NCBI RefSeq assembly: GCF_036321535.1
Contig: NC_087436.1
Coordinates: 73,596,001-73,660,000 of the forward strand
Direction: 5' to 3'
Origin: Camelus dromedarius
Lineage: Eukaryota
DNA: 64,000 nt
The notes under the pieces were generated by a model. It saw nothing but the letters and a program-made list of their open reading frames with translations, made no database searches and was not told the DNA's origin. A program made the position numbers and the translations under genes. Of the stretch, positions 10,397-61,724 are shown in pieces (within the stretch, counting starts at the first letter, position 1; the number at the start of each line of letters is the position of its first letter).

Positions 10397-11027
10397 TGTG
10401 TGGAGGAGGAAAACTTTTCCTGTACCCTCTTAGGTTTAGTGAATGGAGTCTGCAAATTTAACCGACAAAAGACAAACAGGAGAAAAAGAATACAAATTTA
10501 TTAATTTTTTTTATGTGCACAGGAGTTCACAGAAAAGTTAAAGAAGTGACTGGAGTGGGGGTGTAGCTCAGGGGTAGAGCACATGCTTAGCATGTACGAG
10601 GTCCTGGGTTTAATCCCCAGTACCTCCATTAGAAAAAAAAAAAAAAAAAAGTGGCTTGACATGGAGGCTCATATTCCGTTTTAACAAACGAAAGGGAATT
10701 TGAGATTCAAAGAATGATAAACTGTGGCAAAGTGACTAGAAAATTTATGAGAGAACTAGTGGAAGATAAGGGTTATTTTAGTAAAGTCCGTTTATGCAAA
10801 CTCATCTCAGCGTTGACTCCCAGTCTTTGGTGATAAGAGTGCTCTTCTCCTCTGGGTGCAGTGGTGGGGGGGCACCTTCCTACAGGGAAATTTATAGCCT
10901 GCTTTTAGGCAGATAAGGGGAAGGCAGAGAACTTTCCTGTAGCTGTTGATTCTCAATTGCCTCCAGCTCAAAATAATCCTTGTGTCAAATTGGCATATTG
11001 CAGGGTTGCACATCCTGATCCCTTTCA
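10397..11027 (-). mobile_element. ERV-type solo LTR
   Basis: TG...CA termini and ERV1-like body, interrupted by a SINE. Confidence 0.65.
10555..10650 (+). mobile_element. tRNA-derived SINE (camelid Vic-type) nested in an LTR
   Basis: gtagctcaggggtagagcacatgcttagcatgtacgaggtcctgggtttaatccccagtacctcc plus A tail; A and B boxes. Confidence 0.85.
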
Positions 11028-16374: not shown

Positions 16375-16835
16375 CTATGAACCAAGTAATTGTGTCCCCC
16401 TAAAATTCATATATTGAAACCCTAGCCCCCAGTGTGAGAGTACTGGAGGTGAGGACTTTGCAAAGTAATTAGATTATGAGGGTGGCACCCTCATGAATGA
16501 GATTGGTGATTTTTTTTTTTAATGGAGGTACTGGGGATTGAATCCAGAACCTCGTACATGCTAAGCATATGCTCTACCACTGAGCTATACCCTCCCCCCA
16601 ACCCCCTGGTGCTTTTATGAGAAGAGAAACTGAAGAGCTTGCTTCCTCTTTCTCTCCGCCATATGAGGATACAACAAGATGGTCATCTGCAAATCAGGAA
16701 GAGAGCCCTCACCAGGAATGGACTGGCCAGCACCTAGATCTTGGACTGCCCAGCCTCCAGCACTGTGAGAATCAATTGTTACTGTTTAAGCCACCCAGTC
16801 TATGGTGTTTTGTTATGGCAACCTGAGTAGATTAA
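16375..16835 (+). mobile_element. MLT1A-like LTR
   Basis: aaattcatatattgaaacc...tttaagccacccagtctatggtgttttgttatggca. Confidence 0.8.
16510..16600 (-). mobile_element. Vic-type SINE nested in a MaLR LTR
   Basis: Reverse complement of the same SINE consensus with a T tail. Confidence 0.85.
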
Positions 16836-20999: not shown

Positions 21000-23592
21000 G
21001 TACCCCACCATATGGTGATATTATGGATAGATTTTTTCTTTTTTTTTTAATTGACATATAGTTGATTTACAGTGTTGTGTGTTTTATGTTCTTTTATTAT
21101 TTCTGATTTGCCTACCATGAGCATGTCAAAATTTTATAATCAGGAAAAAATTAGTTTTTAAAGGATTTTAACTTAAAACACTTTTCTCATTCCTCTCGTT
21201 CAGTGGATCAGGAAGCACACACACATATTTTTAATTGTTTAGTAAAGCATCTCTACAGTCTGAAATAAAACTAAAAATTAGTCTCTCCATAAATCAGTTT
21301 TAAGGAAAAAAATGAAAATAATGAAAGGCAGTGGAAGGGACAGGATTTATGGTGGAAGTAAGCCTTCTTTCATCCCTTCCCCCAGGCCTCTAGTTTTCCA
21401 GTAAATTCATTTTTTCCCTGCTTTACACACATATACATGTGTGTATGTGTGTGTATGTGGGTGTGTGTGTACACACACAAATTTCAAACCATTCAGAGCT
21501 TCTTTATTCCCATATTCCAGAGATAATCCTTATTAACGTTTAGCTATATGCCATTCCAATCTGTTTCTATATCTCCAGTACAAAACATAGACAATATGTG
21601 TCTTTTAAAAATACACATGAGATCACACTTTAGACATTGTTCTGCCACCTACCTTTTCTCATGTGCCAGTGCACTAAACACAGTCCCCCTCCTCAGTACC
21701 TGTTACATGATATTCCACTGTATGCTTGCATCCCCGTGTTTGAGATGTCCCTGTTAGTGGATATTTAGATTGGTTTTTGCCATTACAAATAAATTCTGTG
21801 ATGAGCATCATAAACATTATTTGAAAGGTAGAAGAACAAACATCAGGATACAATGTTTTGTCTTTTTCCAGTAGAAAGAGTAGTGATGTATTCTTGCTAA
21901 CTGCCAAGGAAGGCTAATGTTCCAGTTTTACCTTGACAGAAATGTCCATATAGAAATTAAGACATTAAAAAATAACTTTATAGTGAATTTTAAACATCAA
22001 AAATAACTTCAAATAGGATGTGTAAATGGCATAAAATTATACTGCATATATTATTTAGCCCAAAGAAAGAAACATGCTCTCATCCTGCCGCAGTCAGTAA
22101 TGCCTGAAAAGCATAGGGCATCTTATCCTTATGAGGGTTGAGATATTCCATTCTTCAATTCATACTTTCAAAGTAAGATATAAAAGTGTGTCTCTGCACT
22201 CTTAGGAAATAAGGTTAACATAAACTAATTATCTGGATTACAGACTGTAAAAGTGTCAATATTTATTTACTTTAAAATTTGTTCTTGGAACATCTTTAAG
22301 TTGCACACTCCCAGGTTATCTTAACTGGAGCATACTAAGCACAATTTGCATTTTATTGATAACCTCAGGCCTCTATGAATGCCATCCGTCTACTGCAATA
22401 TTGTGATAGCCCCAGGAGGGTGTTTGGGGTTAGGTCCACTCACCCCTGCACTAAATGATCCTAAGCTGAATTTCAAAGTCCAATAACTTCTTGGTTTGTG
22501 ATGGAGGGAGAAAAAGGGATGTGATTGCGTTGTGTGTTTATCTGGTCTCCTGACAATTAGAACCTCTGGCTGTGGATTGACACAGAAATTGATGGGACAT
22601 AGTTGATGAACCTGTTAAGGCCCAGTAACCAAACTGAACTTGTCCATTAAGAGACTGTTTGACGAAGAGGAACAAAGAAAATGGATGAAATATTAGATTC
22701 AAAATGCAGTTGGTAGACAGGAGTCTTAAAATATCCAACCTCTGAGAGAGGGAGAGTTGGCTGTAGCCAAAAAGCAAAAAAAAAAAAAAAAAAAAAAAAC
22801 GAGTCCTTGATAGCAGAAAGACTGAAAATGTTATTTCCAAGTTCCATTCCAACTCTAATATTCTATGAGGCCATGATTGCATTTCCACTAAGAGGTCCCA
22901 GTTGCAACCACAGGCAGTCAAGACCCCAAAAGCTGTTTTCCTAAGATGGTAGTGGTGGTTAGAAGCAACTTAAAAGCAAAAAAGAAAGTGTCTGTGTATG
23001 TGGGGGAGAAGAAAATGAAGCATGACTACAAACAAGGAGAAAGCACACAATTACTGTAGCTCTTTTTCCTAGAGGAAATCACATCACTTGATAATATCAA
23101 TGCTTCATATTCAGCGCCATAGGTTAAAACAGATTAGGATGCCATTCTAAATAGTTATAATTTTTTTGAAGGAAGGAAAATCGTAGAAGGACATGTATAA
23201 ATACATATCAATAATTTACCTTTTACTTCATAAATATGAAGTGCCCAGTATACATGAATGGCAAAAGGATACAGATATTGAAGATGATTTGTGTGAAGAA
23301 CAGGAAATTGGAAAGATATTTCAATTGAGAGTTACATTGAAGTCTGATATTTTCTGGATTCCTGGGATTCTGGAAGGGGAAAAGCTAACTGTTAATACAT
23401 GGGTGTTGCCCTGACGTCCTCACATCATAAGAAAGTCATCCTCAGTGGCTGCTCCACCCTCACTGCTGCCTCTCTTTTTTCTCCATCCCTGCTCCTTCCT
23501 CCCTTCCTCTTCCTCTCATTTCCTGAATGAGGAAGATCTTACCCAGAAATTCCATCAGTCAGGCTCCTCTAAGATACCCAACTTGTGACATT

Positions 23593-23672
23593 TCAATGAC
23601 AGCGAGGAAGCCGACTTGCGAGGCCACTCAGAATGCTGGTTGGAGGCCAGGAAGAGAGTGCCTGATCATCCA
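23593..23672 (-). CDS. Microprotein last coding exon (DDQALSSWPPTSILSGLASRLPRCH*)
   Basis: Strong acceptor gctcac...ccactctcttgtctcag|, phase 1, TGA at 23595-23593. Confidence 0.6.
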
Positions 23673-24693
23673 CTGAGACAAGAGAGTGGCGTTGACGTGA
23701 GCAAAATTTCTCTATGTTTCATAAGGAAGTGGTTAATAGTTGGCCTTTCTGCAGGGCAATCCTGAAGCCTAGAAGTCCATGAATTTCGAGAGGGTCTGCT
23801 GGAAATCTTATGCAAAATGTACATGTTATGGGGAATGCAAGATCCTGGGTTTTCATAGATTCTCAAAGGGGTACAATTACTCCAAAAGAGGTGAAGACTC
23901 GGACAAGTGGCTTCGAGCACATCTGATAACTCTGGTGCCTCACCGGGTACTTAGGCTCCATGTGGTGTCCCCAGAGCACTTCCTGTTGAATCTCCCGTGT
24001 AGGACCAGAAGGAAGCACTGAGCCTAGTCTTGACACTAGGGAGGGTTTAGTGAATGAGTTCATGAAACAGGAAATGCTGAACTGTCTAACTTCAACTTTG
24101 CCACCACTTAAACCTTATTTCTTCATCTGCTAGAAAGAGGAGAGGGACTTGTGTTTTATTTTACTATGTGCCTTTCAAGGGTATTTAAAAAAAGAAAATG
24201 TAGCCATGATTCTTATACAAACATAAAAGGAACAAGTGTCAAGGATTATATTTAGCTCATTAATGAAGGAACTGGCAAGCTGTTACAACAGTTGAAAAAG
24301 AGAACTCAAAGCACCACACCTTCATGCTCAGAGTAGGGATCCTGAAATGAATTTACAAGTAGTACAAAACTGGCACACCTTGTCGATATCCACAGGCATC
24401 CTACCAGATACAGTTTGCATTTCTATGCACAGGGGTTAATTACATTACTATCAGTTTTGTACAAGCTTACATTTATCTCTCCAGAATTCTAGCATTGTTA
24501 AAGACAAAGATGGAGGTAACTGGGAAAACCGCACTGGTCAGAACGTCACTCTAGTTCAGTCTTTCACAATTTTTCCTTACGGTGCCTTTATTCTTAAGAT
24601 ATTTTCTTTGAGACAGGTCTTATATTAGTGGCCACCAATTCAGTATGATTTGGGGGCACTGAGAAAACCCTTTATTACCTGATTTTTACCTAC

Positions 24694-24747
24694 CTGCCTG
24701 CAAGGCACCTGAAATTCCACAGTGGGACCTTTCGTCTTTGATCAGGC
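24694..24747 (-). CDS. Microprotein coding exon 3 (LIKDERSHCGISGALQA)
   Basis: Good donor CAG|GTAGGT; 54-nt phase 1-1 exon. The acceptor ataaatccag| is weak but is the first AG after a long AG-free stretch. Confidence 0.5.
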
Positions 24748-25238
24748 CTGGATTTATGCCATTCAATTTAAACGAACCCCCAGAGGGAGCCATGTTTATA
24801 AGGGCACAAAGTAGTCCATGTATGTTATCATGTCTGATTCTCACAGCAACCCATTTTATAAATGATGAAATTGGGAGGCTTGCTGGAGGTAATAAGGACC
24901 TGGTGAGTGATGCAGTGGGTACTTGCACCCAGTTCTGGTTTCAGAAGATGCCCACGTCCTGCCATGCTAATATGTCTTAAAAGACCTGTGCTTCTGGGAT
25001 GGGTCCTACTGAAGGCAGACAGAGGAACAGGAAGAGGATTCACCCTTGCTCACAAAGTCCCTGGACACCATCATCTATGATGGGAAGTTCATTCAACATT
25101 CGTGACTCATACATTTACTGAGCACCCACTATGTGCCAGGCACAGGGGTCATAGTATCGAACAAGACAGTGTCGCCGTTCTTGAGAACTTAAGTTCCAGT
25201 GGGGAAGACACACATCAGACAACTAAATACAGCGTGGA

Positions 25239-25278
25239 GTCTACAGCCATACCACCCTGAACGCGCCCGATCTCGTCT
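25239..25278 (+). pseudogene. 3'-truncated (tailless) 5S rRNA retropseudogene
   Basis: GTCTACAGCCATACCACCCTGAACGCGCCCGATCTCGTCT equals 5S nt 1-40 with one G>A; flanked by ctaa(a/g)tacagcgtgga direct repeats. Confidence 0.92.
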
Positions 25279-25741
25279 AAGTACAGCGTGGATTATTCGG
25301 TTAGGATGGTTAGAAGCGCTACAAAGAAGAGCAGGGAATGCAGGAGTGCGTCTGGGAGGATCCGACTTTCCTGGGGGTGGGGAGGGAGGGTCAGGGAAGT
25401 GCTCTTAGGGATGACTAGCAGTTAAGAGGTGTTGGGGGAAGAGGAGCGCTGCTCCGGGGTGGGGTGGAAGGAAAAAATATTTCAGGCAAAGTAAGCAGCA
25501 CATTGGAGACTCTGAATCAGATCTCTGTCATTCTTTTCCAACTTCCTCTGTACCTATGGGCTCTTCTCGCTCCATCTTAAAACAAAAAGCTAAATGTAAC
25601 TATTTTCCTAGGTAGGATGTGTTGTGGAGCTATTTCTGAGCAGAAGGACCTTCTCCTTAACCAATTTAGTCTCTCTCTCTTCCTGCCTTAGAGTCAGTAA
25701 CTTAAACATCACTTCTGAAAATTTATTGATTCTGAAGTTAC

Positions 25742-25784
25742 CCTTAAGTACCTTCATTTTAACATAAGTGAAATGATATCCTTT
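25742..25784 (-). CDS. Microprotein coding exon 2 (KGYHFTYVKMKVLK-G)
   Basis: Strong pyrimidine tract ccttttatatctatttccctctttcaag|, 43-nt exon, phase 0 to 1, donor AGG|GTAACT. Confidence 0.6.
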
Positions 25785-25957
25785 CTTGAAAGAGGGAAAT
25801 AGATATAAAAGGATGTAACAATGGGGAAAAAAGAATCACATTGTCAATCTTATGTCCAGAGTATGGGAAATCAGATGTCATGTGACTTTGTGTTTCAACA
25901 GGAAAATCTAGAAGCCCTGGAAGGGGAAGAAGTAGGAACACATCAGGGGCTACTCAC

Positions 25958-26014
25958 CATCTGAGAGGTGAGAACTCCAAGGAGAAAGACCAGAAGACTC
26001 ACATGCTGGGACAT
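25958..26014 (-). CDS. Signal-peptide exon of secreted microprotein (MSQHVSLLVFLLGVLTSQM)
   Basis: Acceptor tttcacttgtgcttccag| (exon starts 26023), 9-nt leader, ATG with A at -3, hydrophobic core LLVFLLGVL, phase-0 donor ATG|GTGAGT. Confidence 0.75.
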
Positions 26015-27114
26015 GCTGAGGTGCTGGAAGCACAAGTGAAACATTTTTATTCACAGAAATTAACATGTGCTTGTATATATGCAGATGATGTCTTGACCAT
26101 TCTGTTTTTCCCTTATCTATTTAACACCAATGGTGTACTGTGGAAGCAGTAAAGCACAGAGGTGCTGGATGGAGCAGGCTGGGTGTGAAATCCTGAATTT
26201 GACACTTGCTAGCTGTGTGACCTGGGGCAAACTACTTAGCCTCTTTGGGCCTCATTCTTCTCATCTATAAAATTGGGATAATACTAAAGGCTATTTCAAG
26301 GGTGGTTATAAAATATGGATGCAGAAGTGCACATGAAGCATTTAAAATAGTGCATGGAACACGGGCAGCCCTCTGTAAGTTTTTAGCTTTTATTACTACT
26401 CCCATGCTCTGAGCTGGGCACCAAACAGAGATAAATAAAGGTCTGGCTGTGAAGAATTCATAGTCCATTTAAGAGATTAAATAAAAGGAGTGGATTTCTG
26501 CCTCCACTGCTTACTGCTTTATCCCTTACTCACAGTGGTTACTCATTAAAAATGTGCTGAGAGAATCCATAATGGTTGTATGTGTCCTAGAAAATCAAGC
26601 TTTGATGCCACTAAGGTCCTGACTGCATCTTGATCTACATCATCCCAACTGCATCCCAGGCATTAAATACATTTAATCTCCATGCACAGAGCCCCTTGAG
26701 ATATTTTCCAGGGAGTCTGACTCCGCAGGGTGGCAGGTGACTCTGCAGCCGGCTCCAGGACCCACTGGAGATGCACCAGTAATGTTGACCTGGCTAAGGT
26801 GGGCACTCGGGTTGGGTCCAGATGCAGAGCTCAGCTTTCACCTAATTAAGTGTTTTTGTTTGCCCCCATCTCACTGGATAATAATAGCTAATGTGAAAAT
26901 AACTTCTACTATACCTCACACTTGCCATGCTGCAGACACTTGTCCAAGTTCTTTAACTGTATTTGTTCACTCTCACAACAGCATCCTGAGGCAGGAACTA
27001 GTGTTTCTATTTCTATCTTACATATGAGGAAACTGAGACACAGTGAAGCTAAATAATTTGCCCAAAGTCCTGGCTGTGAAATGAAGATCAGGATTCCAGC
27101 CCAAGTCCTTAGGC

Positions 27115-27300
27115 TATGATGGGCTGTACTGTGTTCCCCCACCCCCAAATGCATATGCTGAAGCCCTACCCCACCTGCTCCAATGTAATAATGTTTACAC
27201 CTGGACCTTTGGGAAATAATTAGGTTTAGATGAGGTCCTGAGGCTGGGATATTCATGAAAAGATTAGTGCTCTTATAAGAAGAGACCAGAGAGCTTACTT

Positions 27301-27376
<76 letters not shown>

Positions 27377-27535
27377 TCTCCGCCATGTGAACAAACGGCA
27401 AGAAGTGGCTGTCTGCAGGCTGAGAGCCCTCACCAGAGCCCGACATGCCCAGACTCCAGAACTGTAAGAAATAAATGTCTGCTGCTTAATCTACCTGATC
27501 TACGGTGTTTTGTTATGGGAGGCCAAGCTAAGACA
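27115..27535 (+). mobile_element. MLT1A-like LTR containing a (TC)n microsatellite
   Basis: MLT1A motifs around the (TC)n tract. Confidence 0.8.
27303..27372. repeat. (TC)n microsatellite, ~35 units
   Basis: Read directly; produces the RE/SL-repeat ORFs in the track. Confidence 0.97.
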
Positions 27536-27975
27536 CAGGCCTGCTGTACTGCTCCCAAGACTTGCTCTTCAGGCCCCTTTGTCTATAGATGGTACAGTTC
27601 CAGGTGCTGGGGTGGTGCCGGGGTACTGCTGCGTCTGGGAGCTGCCTTCCTGTCCTGCACAGTGAGACTGTCTACTTTTATTTTCCCATGAAGTCTAGGG
27701 TTTTCCTCTGGCACATCCCTGACCGGCACTCCTGATTCCCCTCCACTACTCAGCCTTCTGTATTGATGCAGGACAACAGCTGGACTGACTGGAAATCTTT
27801 TTTATCATGCATTTCATCAGTAAAAAATTTTGAGTGTGTACTCTATATACATATATATACATATATATTTATCATTTATCAGTTTTAAGCATGTTCTACT
27901 GCATATACAGTATTACATTATAGAACTCACTAAAAATAAATTTTAAAGTATGGGATTTAAGAATATAAAAATTCT

Positions 27976-28065
27976 ATAGCTCAGGGGTAGTGCGCATACT
28001 TAGCATGCATGAGGTCCTGCCTTCAGTCCCCAGTACCTTCATTAGAAAAATAAATAAATAAATAC
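27976..28065 (+). mobile_element. Vic-type SINE
   Basis: tatagctcaggggtag...cccagtacc plus (TAAA)n tail. Confidence 0.8.
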
Positions 28066-28362
28066 ACAGAGAAACCTAATTAACCCCCTAAAATAAAAAA
28101 TAAATTTAAAAAATTTTAATTAAAACAAACAAAAAACAGTTTGAAGTATATAAAAATTTTAAAATCTCTTTCTACTCCACTGGGTCCTGCTGTGCACCCC
28201 CAAGACACAGACATACCACTCAACCCCAGGGACCATCTCATGTTGCCACATCCCCCGAAATAGCTCCCACTCTATCTGATGCCTGAAGGTTGACTAAGCC
28301 CTGAATCCATAAATTAATAAATCAGAGGGTAGGCATCTCCCTTTGGGCCCCTCAAGACTTAC

Positions 28363-28451
28363 CTGCTGCCGCCGGAGCGCGCTAAGACAGGCAGGAGGCT
28401 CCATCAGAAAGCAACACCAACCAGGCATTCTCTTGACCCCACAAAATGCCC
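28363..28451 (-). other. Candidate 5' exon of the U90926-like gene
   Basis: Perfect donor CAG|GTAAGT (GT at 28362-28361), local CpG retention, possible acceptor ttctttaccag| at 28452. The 5' boundary is uncertain. Confidence 0.55.
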
Positions 28452-31400
28452 CTGGTAAAGAATTCTGTGGCTTTGTGTGTTTTCTAGACTAGTTGTCTTA
28501 CAAAACATGATGTCAGGTAGGGGAGCAAAGTCTGTCTTCAGGATTCGGTTTTGAGAGAATTGCTTACCCCTGGCTTTGCAGCCAACCACATGCCCCTCCT
28601 GCACATAATTATACAGAGGCTGGAGGGAGCGTGCACTTCAGAAGCTGGGTGAGCCCGCGGGTACGGTACACAGGTACACAGACGCACAGACCGTGAATTC
28701 CTCACTGTCAGAGAACCCCACAGAGACAGAACCAAATCTAGTAGACAAGAGACATTTGAAATGTTCTGTGTGTCAGTGTTATTCTTTTCAAAATAAAAAC
28801 CTACCGTTGTTGTCAGAGAAAAATGCAAGGCCCACGTCAAATTCTAATTAAATGAACCCAAGTTACATCCCATCTTCTGTGCTGGCCTTCGCCTCAGATA
28901 TCCCTTTGTTATTCAAAGATTTTTTTTTCCTTTACAAATATTTTATTAATTATAAAACATAATAGGGGTAAGAAAGATACATGAGTATCAGCATAACTTA
29001 CAAACGAAAAAACAGCATTTTGGTGTCATAATTTTCTATAACACAATAACTTGCTAATGTGATATCTTGATTAATCATTAGGATTTTCTATGCTCAATTT
29101 TCTGCAAATACATTTATTGGGTCATCAAATTTTATACTTTTAGTAACTTCATTTTTTTTTCTTATTAGGAGGTTCACTCGGGATTTTAAATGCCAAAAAA
29201 ATCTATCAAATCATTGTATATTTTTTATATTTGATAAAACATATTATTTGCTGATATATGTTTCTATTAATTAATATGACTTTGTAGCTACTGCAAAGTG
29301 TTAGACCTGTCATTTCTTTATTTTATTTTATTTTTTATTGAGGTATAGTTGATTTACTGTTATTCAGAGATTTACAATCAAAATGGTGTTAATGGTAAAA
29401 ATTCTTCCGCTTCAAGAGGTGAGCAATACTTGCTTCTCATTTCCTATGTTGCTTCCTATAAATGCCAGAAAAACACACAGCTCCAGTGTTACACTTGGTG
29501 GGCACACAGAAATGTACCAGAAAGTGGACACACACACAGGCCGCAAGGGAAGTTCTTCCAACAGATTTCTAGAGCGCAAACTTGTATCCTGCACACATGT
29601 ACAATACACTTACATGTACTTCAGTCCCATATTCCTGCTGCAAAACCTATTTAGCTATTGCATGTGTTCTTTTAATACCCTACTAGCTTCAGTTCATAAC
29701 GATTTTATAGATTTCGTGAAGAGTTTTGCATTCATATTTGTAAGTGAGATCAATCTGTGAGATTATTATGTCTTTGGTTTCGGCAAGAGATTTTCAACCT
29801 TTGTGAAATGACTAAGAATCTTCCCCACTTTCTCTGTGCTAACTTACATTGGTATTAAACACATATGTTTCCTTACATTTTCCTAGTCAGATGTGGCTAT
29901 CCTCAAAGGACATTCAGGTCTGCCGGGCTTGTGTGAGGACTGTAGTACTAATGCTATTCTTAACCTGCTTGAGCTGCAAGAGAGTGGAAGACAGTCACCT
30001 CCTTGCCCTGAGGCAGACTGTCTTAGACAAAAATTTTGATGACTAGGCCAATAACAGTGACAGTCTTGTGAAATAATTAAACTCACCTTGTAAGACTGAG
30101 GGCTCTTTAACAGCTCTGTTACTTGTTGAAGAAAGCACCACTGGTCACAAATTTGAAAATGGCACTTTGGATGTAAGAGTTGTTGGTGGTAACAGCACAG
30201 AGTATAGACATCATGTTTTTCCCTTACATGCGTGCTTCCCAACCAGATTTCCAGGTATCTTAACTTTTATTTCACAAAACAAAATGTAAATATTTTGCTT
30301 ATAGATTACATCTACATATATGTACATGTTCTGTAGATGTATTTACGTGTAATACGTATTTTTACATTATATTTCTTTCTTTGGAGGAGATAGTCTGTAA
30401 AAAATCAAACCGGTAGACTGTCAAAGGTCAGATTTCGGGAATAGTGGCAGCCACATCACAGAGTCCCCTCCCATCTCGCCTCAATATTTGTCTCTCCCCA
30501 CCTCAGACACCTTGCGTTCTCAGTTATGGCTTGTTAATCTTTAATAAGATTTTAAAAACAGCATTATTTCTTCCTGTTTTAAAAAAATACAAATCTGGCT
30601 AATTTATTTTGGCCAAGGAGAGAATACCAGAAGAGTCCTGGTTCTAGTGTGGTCTCGGAGAACAGGTAAACTTGGAAACTCCAATTCTAATTCACAGTGA
30701 AAAGAGGAGGAGAGGATGGGGAAGACCGATAATACTTATGATGTGGACGTGGCAATGTGAATTATTAACCATTGCCTGAGACACGATGTGCTCTTTTCGG
30801 AGTCTAATATGGGTCTAGGAGGGCTCAGGAGTTTCTGCAGGATGGATTCTCCAGCAGTCTTGTTCCAGATTTCAACGGCCCCGTGAAAAAGGAAATGCGT
30901 GTCCCTGTGCTTGTAGTGTTGAGCACCGGAGGGTTTATCAAAATACAACTTATTCTTGCTTGCGAGGGGAAACACTGATCAGGAAGCTGGTTTCCAGCGT
31001 TGGAGGACCATCAACTTCAGCGACTTCTCCAAATGTCTGTGTGGAGGAGGGGGCGCTGCGTGAGCTTTGCCCCCGTTTGCTCGGTTCAAAGTTAGAATTA
31101 TTGTTTATGCAACCAACCTTTCAGGTTAAGAGAGATCATTTGCCACATATTTGAAATAGAGCATGTTTTGTAGTTGTGCGCGAAGCTTTAAACGGACAGC
31201 CTATTTTTATCACTACAAGCACTGGATTTGCAAGCGTAGTTCTGTCAGACTTCGTCTTTTCAGACTTGCTCTTTTAAGTTACGTGAAGAGCGACTTGCTG
31301 AACTGCGCCAGATAGCACAGCAACGTCATTCGCTCCAAACCCTTGAAGGAAGGCGCTAATTTATGTTGTTTGTCTTTAAATCTGTTGAGCGTCTTAACCT

Positions 31401-31464
31401 AAGTCTTACTGGAACTGCACGGCTAACAATATAGGAAAAGGAGGAATTAAATGAGGTAACAAAA

Positions 31465-31505
31465 GGGGTGGGGAATATGTAGATGAGTGCAGTGACTGCT
31501 GGTCA
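31465..31505 (+). promoter_or_regulatory. U1 distal sequence element (GT box, octamer ATGTAGAT, SPH-like site)
   Basis: GGGGTGGGG at 31465-31473; ATGTAGAT at 31477-31484 (-219 to -212, the octamer variant of human U1); TGCAGTGACTGCTGGTCA at 31488-31505 resembles a reverse ZNF143/Staf site. Confidence 0.75.
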
Positions 31506-31633
31506 TGCCCGCGCTACACATACATTTCCTAAGATTTTGGCAACCTTCAGATATAAAAATATTGCTACATGAAAATATCGCTTGGCAACTCTTTATTCCA
31601 GAAATAAGGGTGTCTAGAGGCTACATAAGAAAA

Positions 31634-31653
31634 GTGATCCTATGTTAAGAGTG
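31634..31653 (+). promoter_or_regulatory. U1 proximal sequence element (SNAPc site)
   Basis: GTGATCCTATGTTAAGAGTG at -62 to -43, similar in sequence and position to the human U1 PSE (GTGACCGTGTGTGTAAAGAGTG). Confidence 0.75.
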
Positions 31654-31695
31654 ACTTGAATTCGATGGTTAGGTGCCGGGGAAAAACGTCAACTC

Positions 31696-31859
31696 ATACT
31701 TACCTGGCAGGGGAGATACCATGATCACGAAGGTGGTTTTCCCAGGGCGAGGCTCACCCATTGCACTGCGGGTGTGCTGACCCCTGCGATTTCCCCAAAT
31801 GTGGGAAACTCGACTGTATAATTTGTGGTAGTGGGGGACTGCGTTCGCGCTCTCCCCTG
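31696..31859 (+). ncRNA. RNU1: U1 snRNA, full-length 164-nt variant
   Basis: ATACTTACCTGGCAGGGGAGATACCATGATCACGAAGG...AATTTGTGG (Sm site)...GCGTTCGCGCTCTCCCCTG. Intact 5' splice-site recognition end, U1-70K loop and AUUGCAC U1A loop; no polyA tail. Confidence 0.98.
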
Positions 31860-31869
31860 ATTTTATGTT

Positions 31870-31882
31870 GTTTAATATAAGA
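31870..31882 (+). terminator. snRNA 3' box
   Basis: GTTTAATATAAGA starts 11 nt past the U1 3' end; one mismatch to GTTT-N0-3-AAARNNAGA. Confidence 0.7.
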
Positions 31883-32039
31883 AAAGTTCTATATGCTTTG
31901 TTAGTAGGTTTGTTCTGGCTTGTGAGATAGCTTACTCGATTCAGGTTTTTGTGATTGTGGTTTTTTTTTAGACGGATTTTGTGATTTTACGAAATCTGAA
32001 TGGGTAATTGTTATTTCGTAGTACTTGTGCATTTGCTTT

Positions 32040-32594
32040 ACAATGTTTTTAAAACTTCAGTATAGTTGGTATACGGTAGTCTGCTGCAGGTGTGTATGTA
32101 TAATACAGTGATTTATAATTTTAAAGATTGTATATGTTGTTTATAGTTACAAAATATTGGCTGTGTTCCCTGGGTTGTGCAATACATCCGTGTAGTTTAT
32201 AAACTTTAAAAAAAAATTTTTATTGTTATATTTATTTTATAATGTGTTAAATTCCACTGTAGAGCATAATTATGCAGTTATACATAACCATACATATATT
32301 CATTGTCACCGCCCCTACACCCGGGCTGTGAGCTACCACAAGATCTTGTATACATTTCCCTGTGCTATACCGTATAATCTTGTTTATCTATTCTACATTT
32401 TGAAATCCCCCTGTCCCTTCCCACGCCCCTCCCCCTTGGCAATTTTGTAGCTTGTATTATACCTGTTAGTTTATACCTTTTAATCTGCTTCCCACTCCCT
32501 ACTGGTAACCACTAGTTTCTTTTCTACATCTGAGTCTCTTTTGTTATATTCACTACCTCTGTTGTATGTTTTAGATTCCACATGTAGTTGATAT
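32040..32594 (-). mobile_element. Nested L1 3' UTR fragments
   Basis: ttccctgtgctatac and ttagattccacatgt L1 3' hallmarks in reverse. Confidence 0.7.
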
Positions 32595-41139: not shown

Positions 41140-41236
41140 ATGTATTTGTTTATTTTTGGAGGTGGTGCTGGGGGTTGAACCCAGGAGCTGGCGCATGCTG
41201 AGCATGCGCTCTACCACTGAGCTATACCCTCCCCCT
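41140..41236 (-). mobile_element. Vic-type SINE
   Basis: Reverse copy ending ctctaccactgagctataccctcccc. Confidence 0.85.
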
Positions 41237-49854: not shown

Positions 49855-50095
49855 GGGGAAGGGTATAGCACATGCTTAGCATCCACGAGGTCCTGAGTTC
49901 AATCCCCAGTATCTTCATTAAAAGGAAGAAAAAAGTTTTTTTTTTAATTGTAGTAAAATGTACATAACCTAAAATTTGACATTTTAACCACATCTAAAAG
50001 TACAGTTTTGGGGAAGGTATAGCTCAGTGGTAGAACACATGCTTAGCATGCATGAGGTCCTGGGTTCAATCCTCAGTACCTCCATTAAAAAAACA
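49855..50095 (+). mobile_element. Two Vic-type SINEs (49855-49935 with internal deletion; 50009-50095)
   Basis: Both carry atgcttagcat...gaggtcctg.gttcaatcc.cagta. Confidence 0.8.
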
Positions 50096-61051: not shown

Positions 61052-61305
61052 TTAGTGTGCGCCTGGGCTGCTGCAGGCACTGCTGTTGGTGTTTGTGGTT
61101 CGTGGGCAGTCTGAGGCATCGCCCTCTGAACAGGACTGCTCCACAAGGCGGAAGGCCTCCAGGAACTCATTGATGTCAATGTGGCCATCCTTGTTGAAGT
61201 CAATGCTCCGGGCAAGGTCGCAGATGCAGTCATCTGTGATGTCAATGTTCATATGAGAGCTGAACAGCTTCCAAGTCTGCCTGAACTCGTCCAGTGAGAT
61301 GAACC
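61052..61305 (-). CDS. PPEF2: PPEF2 last coding exon (C-terminal EF-hands)
   Basis: Acceptor ctctctctggtaag|GG, then (G)FISLDEFRQTWKLFSSHMNIDITDDCICDLARSIDFNKDGHIDINEFLEAFRLVEQSCSEGDASDCPRTTNTNSSACSSPGAH*. Contains EF-hand loop DFNKDGHIDINE and matches the PPEF2 C-terminus as I recall it. Confidence 0.95.
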
Positions 61306-61724
61306 CTTACCAGAGAGAGCAAGTCACTTAGTCTAGTTTTCAGTGCTCGTTTCCTCTGACATTCTTGCAAGGACACCTGGTTGCAAACAAAGACACCCAG
61401 GGCCTAGTATCCACTTTAAACTCCCAAGAGGATAGTGCAAAATCACTACATCACCAGTGGTCCTCAGCTGGGAGCAAGTTTGCTCTTCTAGGGACGTTTG
61501 TAAATGTTTCGAGACATTTTTGATTGTCATGGGGGAGGGGGGAGGGTGTTACTGGCATCTAGTAGGTAAAGGGCAGGGATGCTACTAAACATCCTAAAAT
61601 GTACGGGATGGGCCCCCAAACAAAGAATTGCTCAAGCCAAAATGTCAGCAGTGCCACTGCTGAGAAGCCCTGCATTAAATCATCCCAAACATATGCTAAT
61701 TTATTCTGCTTATAAAAAGCCTTT

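Follow-up and report, generated by a model that had tools for sequence, protein, structure and literature searches.

The closest described system to the locus considered here is mouse U90926, which lies between Uso1 and Ppef2, with the human lncRNA AC110615.1 located between the same two genes (PMC8190147). The mouse transcript (NR_033483.1) has 5 exons and 522 nt (PMC7656448). It is TLR-inducible and filed as lncRNA, and two papers report that its open reading frame, U9-ORF (264 bp, 87 aa), encodes a secreted 87-aa protein (PMC10764201, PMC13434451). AC110615.1, for which Shirahama et al. 2021 use the name 'human U90926', is a multi-exon transcript with 6 exons and 592 nt, filed as non-coding. 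In the authors' own alignment, the human and mouse transcripts are 45.3% similar (PMC8190147), and because they are so little alike, fast sequence turnover is the known state of the locus. The literature passages searched do not say on which strand mouse U90926 lies with respect to Ppef2; therefore, same-strand orthology is unproven. In bioRxiv, U90926 was found only in mentions, with no preprint about the gene itself.

A previous interpretation of dromedary DNA from this region (the sequence-only reading) proposed a multi-exon gene for a conserved, possibly unannotated, secreted microprotein of 77 aa, a likely counterpart of U90926. What it stated of the mouse gene, a 5-exon TLR-inducible transcript in the Uso1-Ppef2 interval with a secreted product, agrees with PMC13434451, PMC10764201, and PMC8190147.

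Position of the candidate between USO1 and PPEF2

The window, i.e., the whole stretch of DNA that was analysed, comprises 64,000 nucleotides of Camelus dromedarius contig NC_087436.1. It begins at contig position 73596001. To its left, USO1 head-domain exons are located at contig positions 73575599-73584117 (+), and an exon for the USO1 C-terminal domain lies just before the edge at contig positions 73594913-73595128 (+). The distance from the USO1 exons (+) to the window is thus 0.9-20 kb, and the candidate lies within the window at 23.6-28.4 kb. On the right, the terminal exon of PPEF2 encodes 84 aa, which match PPEF2 of Vicugna pacos and Camelus species with 100% coverage and 100% identity. 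The interval is therefore the one between USO1 and PPEF2, as had been supposed, and the candidate occupies the position of the U90926 / AC110615.1 locus. The proposed chemokine neighbourhood is also real, with chemokine-family exons 107 and 129 kb right of the window end. In a Pfam search that covered 280 of the 580 stop-to-stop frames of at least 45 aa (ordered by position, frames 1-150 and the final 130), only the PPEF2 EF-hand exon rose above noise. The features discussed below are as follows (positions within the window).

28363..28451, minus strand: putative 5' exon; the donor GCAG/gtaagt fixes its 3' end, and its 5' end is a guess of the sequence-only reading
25958..26023, minus strand: exon 1; acceptor 26023, ATG 26014, donor ATG/gtgagt; encodes a 19-aa hydrophobic leader
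25742..25784, minus strand: exon 2 (43 nt); weak donor AGG/gtaact
24694..24747, minus strand: exon 3 (54 nt); strong donor CAG/gtaggt, poor acceptor
23593..23672, minus strand: exon 4, coding part; stop TGA 23595-23593; acceptor at the 95.2th percentile; 3' end undefined
61055..61306, minus strand: last coding exon of PPEF2 (EF-hand); Pfam EF-hand_1 E 4.5e-8; stop at 61052-61054

Exon chain, reading frame and chance expectation

The four minus-strand exons with ag/gt borders and the 77-codon open reading frame are present in the DNA. Joining 26014-25958, 25784-25742, 24747-24694, and 23672-23593 gives 234 nt, equal to 77 codons and TGA, with phases 0, 1, 1, and the peptide is identical to the one originally proposed. 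The upstream donor at 28363 is likewise present and ranks at the 99.97th percentile among 6705 GT sites. With splice sites scored by approximate consensus weights rather than a trained model, exon 1 has an acceptor at the 97.6th percentile and a donor at the 99.6th, exon 2 an acceptor at the 95.6th and a donor at the 95.2th, and exon 3 a donor at the 99.8th and an acceptor at only the 45.7th percentile of 8646 AG sites, without a pyrimidine tract. Skipping of exon 3 keeps the frame and leaves a product of 59 aa. Three of the four donors in the chain rank above the 99.6th percentile. The 6.5-kb region as a whole contains 6 donors of the top 0.5%, which is the 99th-percentile value of minus-strand sliding windows, and 12 acceptor-donor pairs, which is the 90th percentile. 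Each exon occurs only once in the genome, and none is derived from repeats.

The ends of the putative transcript are less convincing. No poly(A) signal occurs within 1236 nt of the stop, the first AATAAA/ATTAAA being at 22357, and no CpG island is located at the putative 5' ends, the best observed/expected value nearby being 0.67 at 28651-29050. The NF-kB, ISRE, AP-1, CRE, and PU.1 consensus motifs gave no match in a scan of 1.3 kb covering both putative 5' ends; the same 1.3 kb contain one GAS-like and one C/EBP-like site, about the chance level. Given the absence of both a nearby poly(A) signal and inflammatory motifs, the transcript model is incomplete and nothing favours U90926-like induction.

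How easily such a chain arises was estimated within the window. When the site and size limits are relaxed to the level of the weakest sites in the sequence-only reading itself, 3502 four-exon models that run from ATG to stop and encode at least 70 aa can be built in the window, starting from 65 different ATGs. ATG 26014 alone starts 24 further models, 21 of which exceed the proposed chain in summed splice-site score; of 36 plausible exon chains, only 2 yield the 77-aa product. For the chain as it stands, an open reading frame of at least 77 aa was obtained in 89 of 2000 dinucleotide shuffles and in 101 of 5000 trials in which this exon geometry was placed at random. Its length is thus in the top 2-5%, only mildly unusual, and these figures are generous because the chain was picked to keep the frame open. 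By itself, the exon and reading-frame pattern is no more than chance expectation. It is worth noticing that a clean GT-AG chain with a start resembling a signal peptide arises easily in intergenic DNA.

By heuristic, the hydrophobic leader has a 13-residue uncharged run (residues 5-17), and sites obeying the (-3,-1) rule follow residues 13, 16, and 17. A comparable leader is found at 3 of the 65 model-starting ATGs of the window, and two of those three lie within exon 1. The 77-aa product contains just two Cys and lacks an N-glycosylation sequon. The claim of a clear N-terminal signal peptide is weakened by the 5' exon of the same model, which has in-frame ATGs at 28428 and 28404. If this exon is joined at 26023, the start of the frame moves upstream by 25 or 17 codons, the open reading frame becomes 102 or 94 aa, and the leader may be displaced to residues 30-41.

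Relatives and conservation of the exons

The 77-aa product is listed as a protein by no source, and in this respect the earlier interpretation was correct in calling it possibly unannotated. The exon-4 peptide, searched as a 41-aa stop-to-stop frame, matched none of the longer or similar-length proteins of a 5.8-billion collection. The spliced exon1-exon2 product was not found in protein collections, which include spliced Logan-derived fragments of PPEF2. With the 35-aa frame that contains exon 1 as a query, a search of 1.84 billion representatives gave 2 clusters, and both represent unspliced read-through ORFs of genomic DNA. A scan of metagenome contigs for the DNA of the relatives (alignment A1) gave 124 pattern matches, of which 0 were confirmed.

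Three related sequences, from at least two other sources, keep the exon-1 ATG with the frame open, and the codons at both exon-1 splice sites, acceptor and donor, do not vary among the four rows (window and three relatives). Within exon 1, coding identity is 14/19, compared with 18/25 in the adjoining intron and 11/17 upstream. The identity of exon 2 to one relative, P0121, is 7/14, compared with 15/28 in the preceding intron and 11/18 in the following one. The same relative has Asn in place of the Gly codon of the exon-2 donor, and therefore the donor GT is absent at that position; it also has a Leu-to-His change within the hydrophobic core of the leader. In a conserved coding sequence, identity should be higher in the exons than in the flanks and the substitutions compatible with the frame, and exons 1 and 2 do not display this. 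This small comparison, which covers 19 + 14 codons of exons 1-2 only in three relatives of unestimated distance and is still compatible with weak constraint or positive selection, points to probable neutral drift of the peptide. The description of the product as conserved is not supported, as exons 1 and 2 are kept no better than their flanks and one relative is without the exon-2 donor. The claim that a secreted protein is encoded is likewise unsupported, the frame being kept no better than the surrounding non-coding DNA.

Possible readings of the locus and comparison with known systems

The interpretation as a whole survives in part: the interval, the facts about mouse U90926, and the absence of annotation stand, and the counterpart of the U90926 ORF, the conservation, and the clear signal peptide are not supported. 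On balance, it is probable that the candidate is at best a positional counterpart of the lncRNA-type locus of U90926/AC110615.1, carrying a non-conserved ORF. The putative transcript would be a minus-strand, spliced, low-abundance product of Pol II, and its first ORF-bearing exon (26023-25958) may be real or close to it. In that case, the 77-codon frame would represent a lineage-specific ORF without constraint, such as short spliced non-coding RNAs often carry, and presumably no orthologue of the secreted mouse U9-ORF. We infer both the existence of the transcript and its U90926-like behaviour.

It could also be assumed that there is no gene here, and that chance GT/AG sites and an ATG in intergenic DNA were chosen for their open frame, with a conserved block at approximately 26080-25690 that is neutral or regulatory. 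This possibility, which is rather unlikely, draws on the 3502 comparable models in 64 kb, on the 21 of 24 alternatives from the same ATG with higher scores, on the one poor acceptor, and on the missing poly(A) signal. The 5' ends with neither a CpG island nor an inflammatory promoter motif, the flat conservation across exon and intron, the failure to find the product in any protein collection, and an Rfam search of 22-30 kb with no match at E <= 1 are in agreement with it. However, mouse and human each have a spliced transcript in the interval (PMC8190147), so that a transcript would be expected here a priori. Very strong donors on the same strand also place the region in the top ~1% of sliding windows, and all three relatives retain the codons at the acceptor and donor of exon 1, which argues against chance sites.

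At the other extreme, the candidate would be a genuine small secreted protein gene, with a cleavable exon-1 signal peptide homologous to that of mouse U9-ORF and a mature part too fast-evolving to be recognised between orders, like other immune or reproductive secreted peptides. The uncharged run with its (-3,-1) sites, the rarity of such leaders at the model ATGs, the exon-1 ATG, open frame, and donor retained in three relatives, the hydrophobic leader and similar ending in mouse, the ORF length, and the immune-gene neighbourhood are consistent with this proposal. It is nevertheless improbable, as exons 1-2 are no better kept than flanking intron, one relative has lost the exon-2 donor, and exon 3 depends on an acceptor at the 45.7th percentile. 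Only 2/36 plausible chains yield the product, the upstream in-frame ATGs would bury the leader, the two Cys come without a sequon or the four-Cys motif of the mouse protein, and the protein collections contain neither the exon-4 peptide nor the spliced exon1-exon2 product. A bolder version, for which we see only a very slim chance, supposes an ancient secretory-leader exon at the USO1-PPEF2 locus (ATG, open frame, and donor kept in at least three taxa), possibly common with the mouse U9-ORF leader, onto which unrelated short secreted tails evolved in each mammalian lineage, the camelid 77-aa product being one of them. If this were true, the locus would be a conserved launch pad for lineage-specific microproteins of an immune neighbourhood. 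If the product were translated and secreted, the story of mouse U9-ORF, a protective secreted protein in endotoxic shock made from a 'non-coding' RNA, would extend beyond rodents, and a second, unrelated product of the same locus would be available for comparison. On the present evidence, the value is mainly cautionary: a position syntenic to that of a known micropeptide gene does not bring the peptide along.

The comparison with the mouse frame was made by eye, the ORF being taken from the transcript printed with PMC8190147. On this basis, mouse U9-ORF and the 77-aa product have no recognisable common mature sequence. The C-x7-C-x3-C-x5-C pattern of U9-ORF has 0 matches in the six frames of the window, and a relaxed four-Cys pattern gives two matches at 29473-29614 (-), with different spacing and outside the exons. 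The mouse four-Cys pattern and Ser/Thr/Pro-rich tail have no match in the product or the window, and the proposed counterpart of the U90926 ORF is not supported. The mouse transcript ends at a poly(A) signal ~130 nt after the stop, whereas the camel locus has none within 1236 nt. Human AC110615.1 shares the interval with the exons described here and, by eye, only short, scattered, and untrustworthy word matches. Chains that linked the mouse and human transcripts to the exons by eye needed a gap every 10-15 bases, would gain no score with usual gap penalties, and were rejected as evidence. Expression, secretion, and glycosylation have been demonstrated for mouse U9-ORF only, according to papers that cite the primary study. 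The similarities concern architecture and the leader. Like the 77-aa product, U9-ORF is a short ORF of a multi-exon unit that starts with a hydrophobic leader, and by eye its leader ends in a short motif, L-T-[SA]-[QH], similar to the product here. Other macrophage 'lncRNA' ORFs, such as that of Aw112010 (84 aa), are likewise short and belong to immune-inducible transcripts filed as non-coding (PMC13434451); they differ from the 77-aa ORF, which is known from sequence alone, in having evidence of translation.

A candidate minus-strand exon chain between USO1 and PPEF2

The sequence-only reading proposed a four-exon minus-strand gene for a secreted 77-aa microprotein. When the four stretches were cut and joined by script, they gave 234 nt, a multiple of three, and the translation, 77 residues followed by TGA, is identical to the product proposed; exons, AG/GT borders (AG directly 5' of each exon, minus strand of 23500-26100) and frame are thus confirmed, and the donor of the upstream exon is also present. 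All exons are single copy in the genome (2.3 Gb, 171 contigs). Each splice site was ranked against every GT (6705) or AG (8646) on the two strands, using approximate consensus weights.

Exons of the model, with percentiles of their splice sites
28451-28363 (-): putative 5' exon, defined at its donor end (GCAG/gtaagt at 28363, 99.97)
26014-25958 (-): exon 1 (acceptor 26023, 97.6; donor ATG/gtgagt after 25958, 99.6)
25784-25742 (-): exon 2 (acceptor 25784, 95.6; donor AGG/gtaact after 25742, 95.2)
24747-24694 (-): exon 3 (acceptor 24747, 45.7; donor CAG/gtaggt after 24694, 99.8)
23672-23593 (-): exon 4 (acceptor 23672, 95.2)

At the exon-3 acceptor a pyrimidine tract is lacking. The candidate region is rich in strong minus-strand donors, with six in the top 0.5%, equal to the 99th-percentile value of sliding windows, and 12 acceptor-donor pairs, equal to the 90th. 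Its strongest exon-like pair, 24126-23944 (-) (acceptor 11.6; donor CCG/gtgagg, 6.9), is absent from the proposed model, and adding it to the chain ends the frame from ATG 26014 at 44-63 aa.

The window spans C1:73596001-73660000. Its proposed location between USO1 and PPEF2, with chemokine genes beyond, was borne out by the exons found.

Flanking exons
C1:73575599-73584117 (+): USO1 head-domain exons
C1:73594913-73595128 (+): USO1 C-terminal-domain exon, 0.9-1.1 kb left of the window
61055-61306 (-): PPEF2 EF-hand exon, 84-aa open frame (Pfam EF-hand_1, E 4.5e-8), stop codon at 61052-61054
C1:73766663 and C1:73789027 (-): chemokine-family exons, 107 and 129 kb past the window end

PPEF2 proteins from Vicugna pacos, Camelus ferus and C. 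dromedarius match the 84-aa frame end to end at 100% identity; in the protein search 513 of 545 candidates reached E <= 0.001, and the matches listed are mammalian PPEF2. The candidate therefore falls in the middle of the USO1-PPEF2 interval of a camelid-like genome and shares its strand with PPEF2. According to PMC8190147, the same two genes flank U90926 in mouse and the lncRNA AC110615.1 in human.

Repeats near the model are confined to introns: the SINE 27974-28138, present thousands of times in the genome (identity 77-91%; 5533 candidates at first look), and the (TC)39 microsatellite 27303-27380, both in intron 1 of the model (3' of the putative 5' exon), and an old repeat at 24174-24519. 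In intron 2, 25239-25278 (+) matches 40 nt from the 5' end of this genome's 5S rRNA (39/40 positions agree with the tandem 5S genes of contig C8) and is unreported by Rfam at E <= 1; it is an odd insertion of the 5' end alone within an old repeat and, by eye, is flanked by a 16-nt direct repeat (15/16 alike) and lacks an A-tail. Four tRNA-model matches (10557-10628 (+), 16523-16594 (-), 41160-41231 (-) and 50013-50084 (+); 29.5-51 bits) are probably tRNA-derived SINE heads, not tRNA genes. On the strand opposite the putative 5' exon, and 3.2 kb upstream of it, a full-length U1 snRNA copy occupies 31696-31859 (+) (flanks 31021-32200; Rfam RF00003, 172 bits, E 7e-45); CpG o/e around it reaches 0.94-0.95, the maximum for the window. 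Some 670 nt of the 5' flank are 78% identical to a member of a U1 gene cluster on contig C16, which indicates that gene and upstream region were copied together at the DNA level and that this is no retro-copy; it could be an active U1 variant.

Chance expectation of the open frame

With limits as loose as the weakest sites of the proposed chain, four-exon ATG-to-stop models of at least 70 aa number 1191 + 2311 = 3502 in the window and start at 35 + 30 = 65 ATGs. ATG 26014 accounts for 25 of them, and 21 of the 24 others exceed the proposed model in summed site score. Among 36 chains built from better exon-like pairs 3' of exon 2, the frame from this ATG measures 35-86 aa, and just two give the 77-aa product. 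A leader-like hydrophobic start is rarer, occurring at three of the 65 ATGs (two belonging to exon 1, one a poly-T artefact). With the chain taken as given, 77 aa were reached in 89/2000 shuffles and 101/5000 random placements, figures biased toward the ORF because the chain was selected for staying open; the length excess is mild.

Joining the putative 5' exon at 26023 would bring in the in-frame ATGs 28428 (A at -3) and 28404, giving 102 or 94 aa and moving the hydrophobic stretch to residues 30-41; a transcription start just 5' of exon 1 would instead add ATG 26044 (87 aa). Simple rules applied to the 77-aa product mark residues 5-17 as an uncharged run of 13 and allow cleavage behind residue 13, 16 or 17; they show no sequon for N-glycosylation, and Cys occurs at positions 43 and 76 only.

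Relatives of the first two exons and the readings of the locus

The 35-aa frame around exon 1, run through HMMER exhaustively against 1.84 billion representatives, matched two proteins at E <= 0.001: P0121 (183 aa; Logan contig of 7954 nt) and P0122 (99 aa, ENA assemblies), the cluster of the latter having one additional member, P0123. Both align collinearly with unspliced DNA of the window (P0121, 26080-25689; P0122, 26047-25757) and continue past the exon-1 donor into intron sequence, which marks them as gene calls made on the genomic DNA of related organisms, not spliced products. No longer or similar-length protein sharing the exon-4 peptide was found in a 5.8-billion collection, although camelid proteins from NCBI and spliced PPEF2 fragments derived from Logan are among its contents.

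The ATG, acceptor codons and donor codons of exon 1 are invariant in all aligned rows. Against P0121, identical/aligned residues are 11/17 upstream of exon 1, 14/19 in its coding part (likewise 14/19 for P0122 and P0123), 18/25 in the adjoining intron, 15/28 in the intron before exon 2, 7/14 in exon 2 and 11/18 in the intron after it. As aligned here, identity is flat across exon and intron. P0121 also has His for a hydrophobic-core Leu, and Asn for the Gly codon holding the exon-2 donor GT; an Asn codon rules out GT at that position. In this small sample of three relatives, the peptide seems to have drifted neutrally. The block 26080-25689 (-), about 390 nt from exon 1 through intron 1 to exon 2, is related to sequence from at least two other sources, at 50-74% translated identity even over exon and intron; instead of coding sequence, it could be a conserved promoter or first-exon region of the locus.

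We lean, by a modest degree, toward an unconstrained ORF carried by a positional counterpart of the lncRNA type, or by what is at minimum a genuine first exon, with putative transcription and splicing. The absence of any transcript at the locus is rather less probable; in its favour, there is no AATAAA or ATTAAA within 1236 nt 3' of the stop (nearest at 22357), and neither putative 5' end has a CpG island or an inflammatory promoter consensus. A genuine secreted microprotein, which the leader-like start would suit, is improbable; the conservation expected of it is unsupported, exon identity being no higher than intron identity and the exon-2 donor GT being excluded in P0121.

Comparison with mouse U90926

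The primary paper on U9-ORF, the secreted product of mouse U90926, is that of Sabikunnahar et al. 2023. The mouse transcript is described as 522 nt in five exons (PMC7656448) with an ORF of 264 bp (PMC10764201), and its product as 87 aa, glycosylated and secreted, with induction via TLR-MyD88-p38 (PMC13434451); the statements of the sequence-only reading on exon number, induction and a short secreted product agree with these sources. Mouse nt 4-520, printed in alignment to human in supplement 2 of PMC8190147, contain by eye an ATG-to-TAG frame of 87 codons, in agreement with the published length. The mouse-human transcript similarity is 45.3% by the authors' own figure (PMC8190147). By-eye nucleotide chains between the mouse/human transcripts and the window exons were dismissed for too many gaps.

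Homology of the 77-aa product to the U90926 ORF, as the sequence-only reading had supposed, is unsupported. C-x7-C-x3-C-x5-C had no match in six frames of the whole window; two relaxed matches, 29473-29614 (-), have other spacing. Compared by eye, U9-ORF has a hydrophobic leader, four Cys in that spacing and a Ser/Thr/Pro-rich tail, whereas the camelid product lacks both the spacing and the tail, and its likeness to the mouse protein is a faint one at the end of the leader, L-T-[SA]-[QH].
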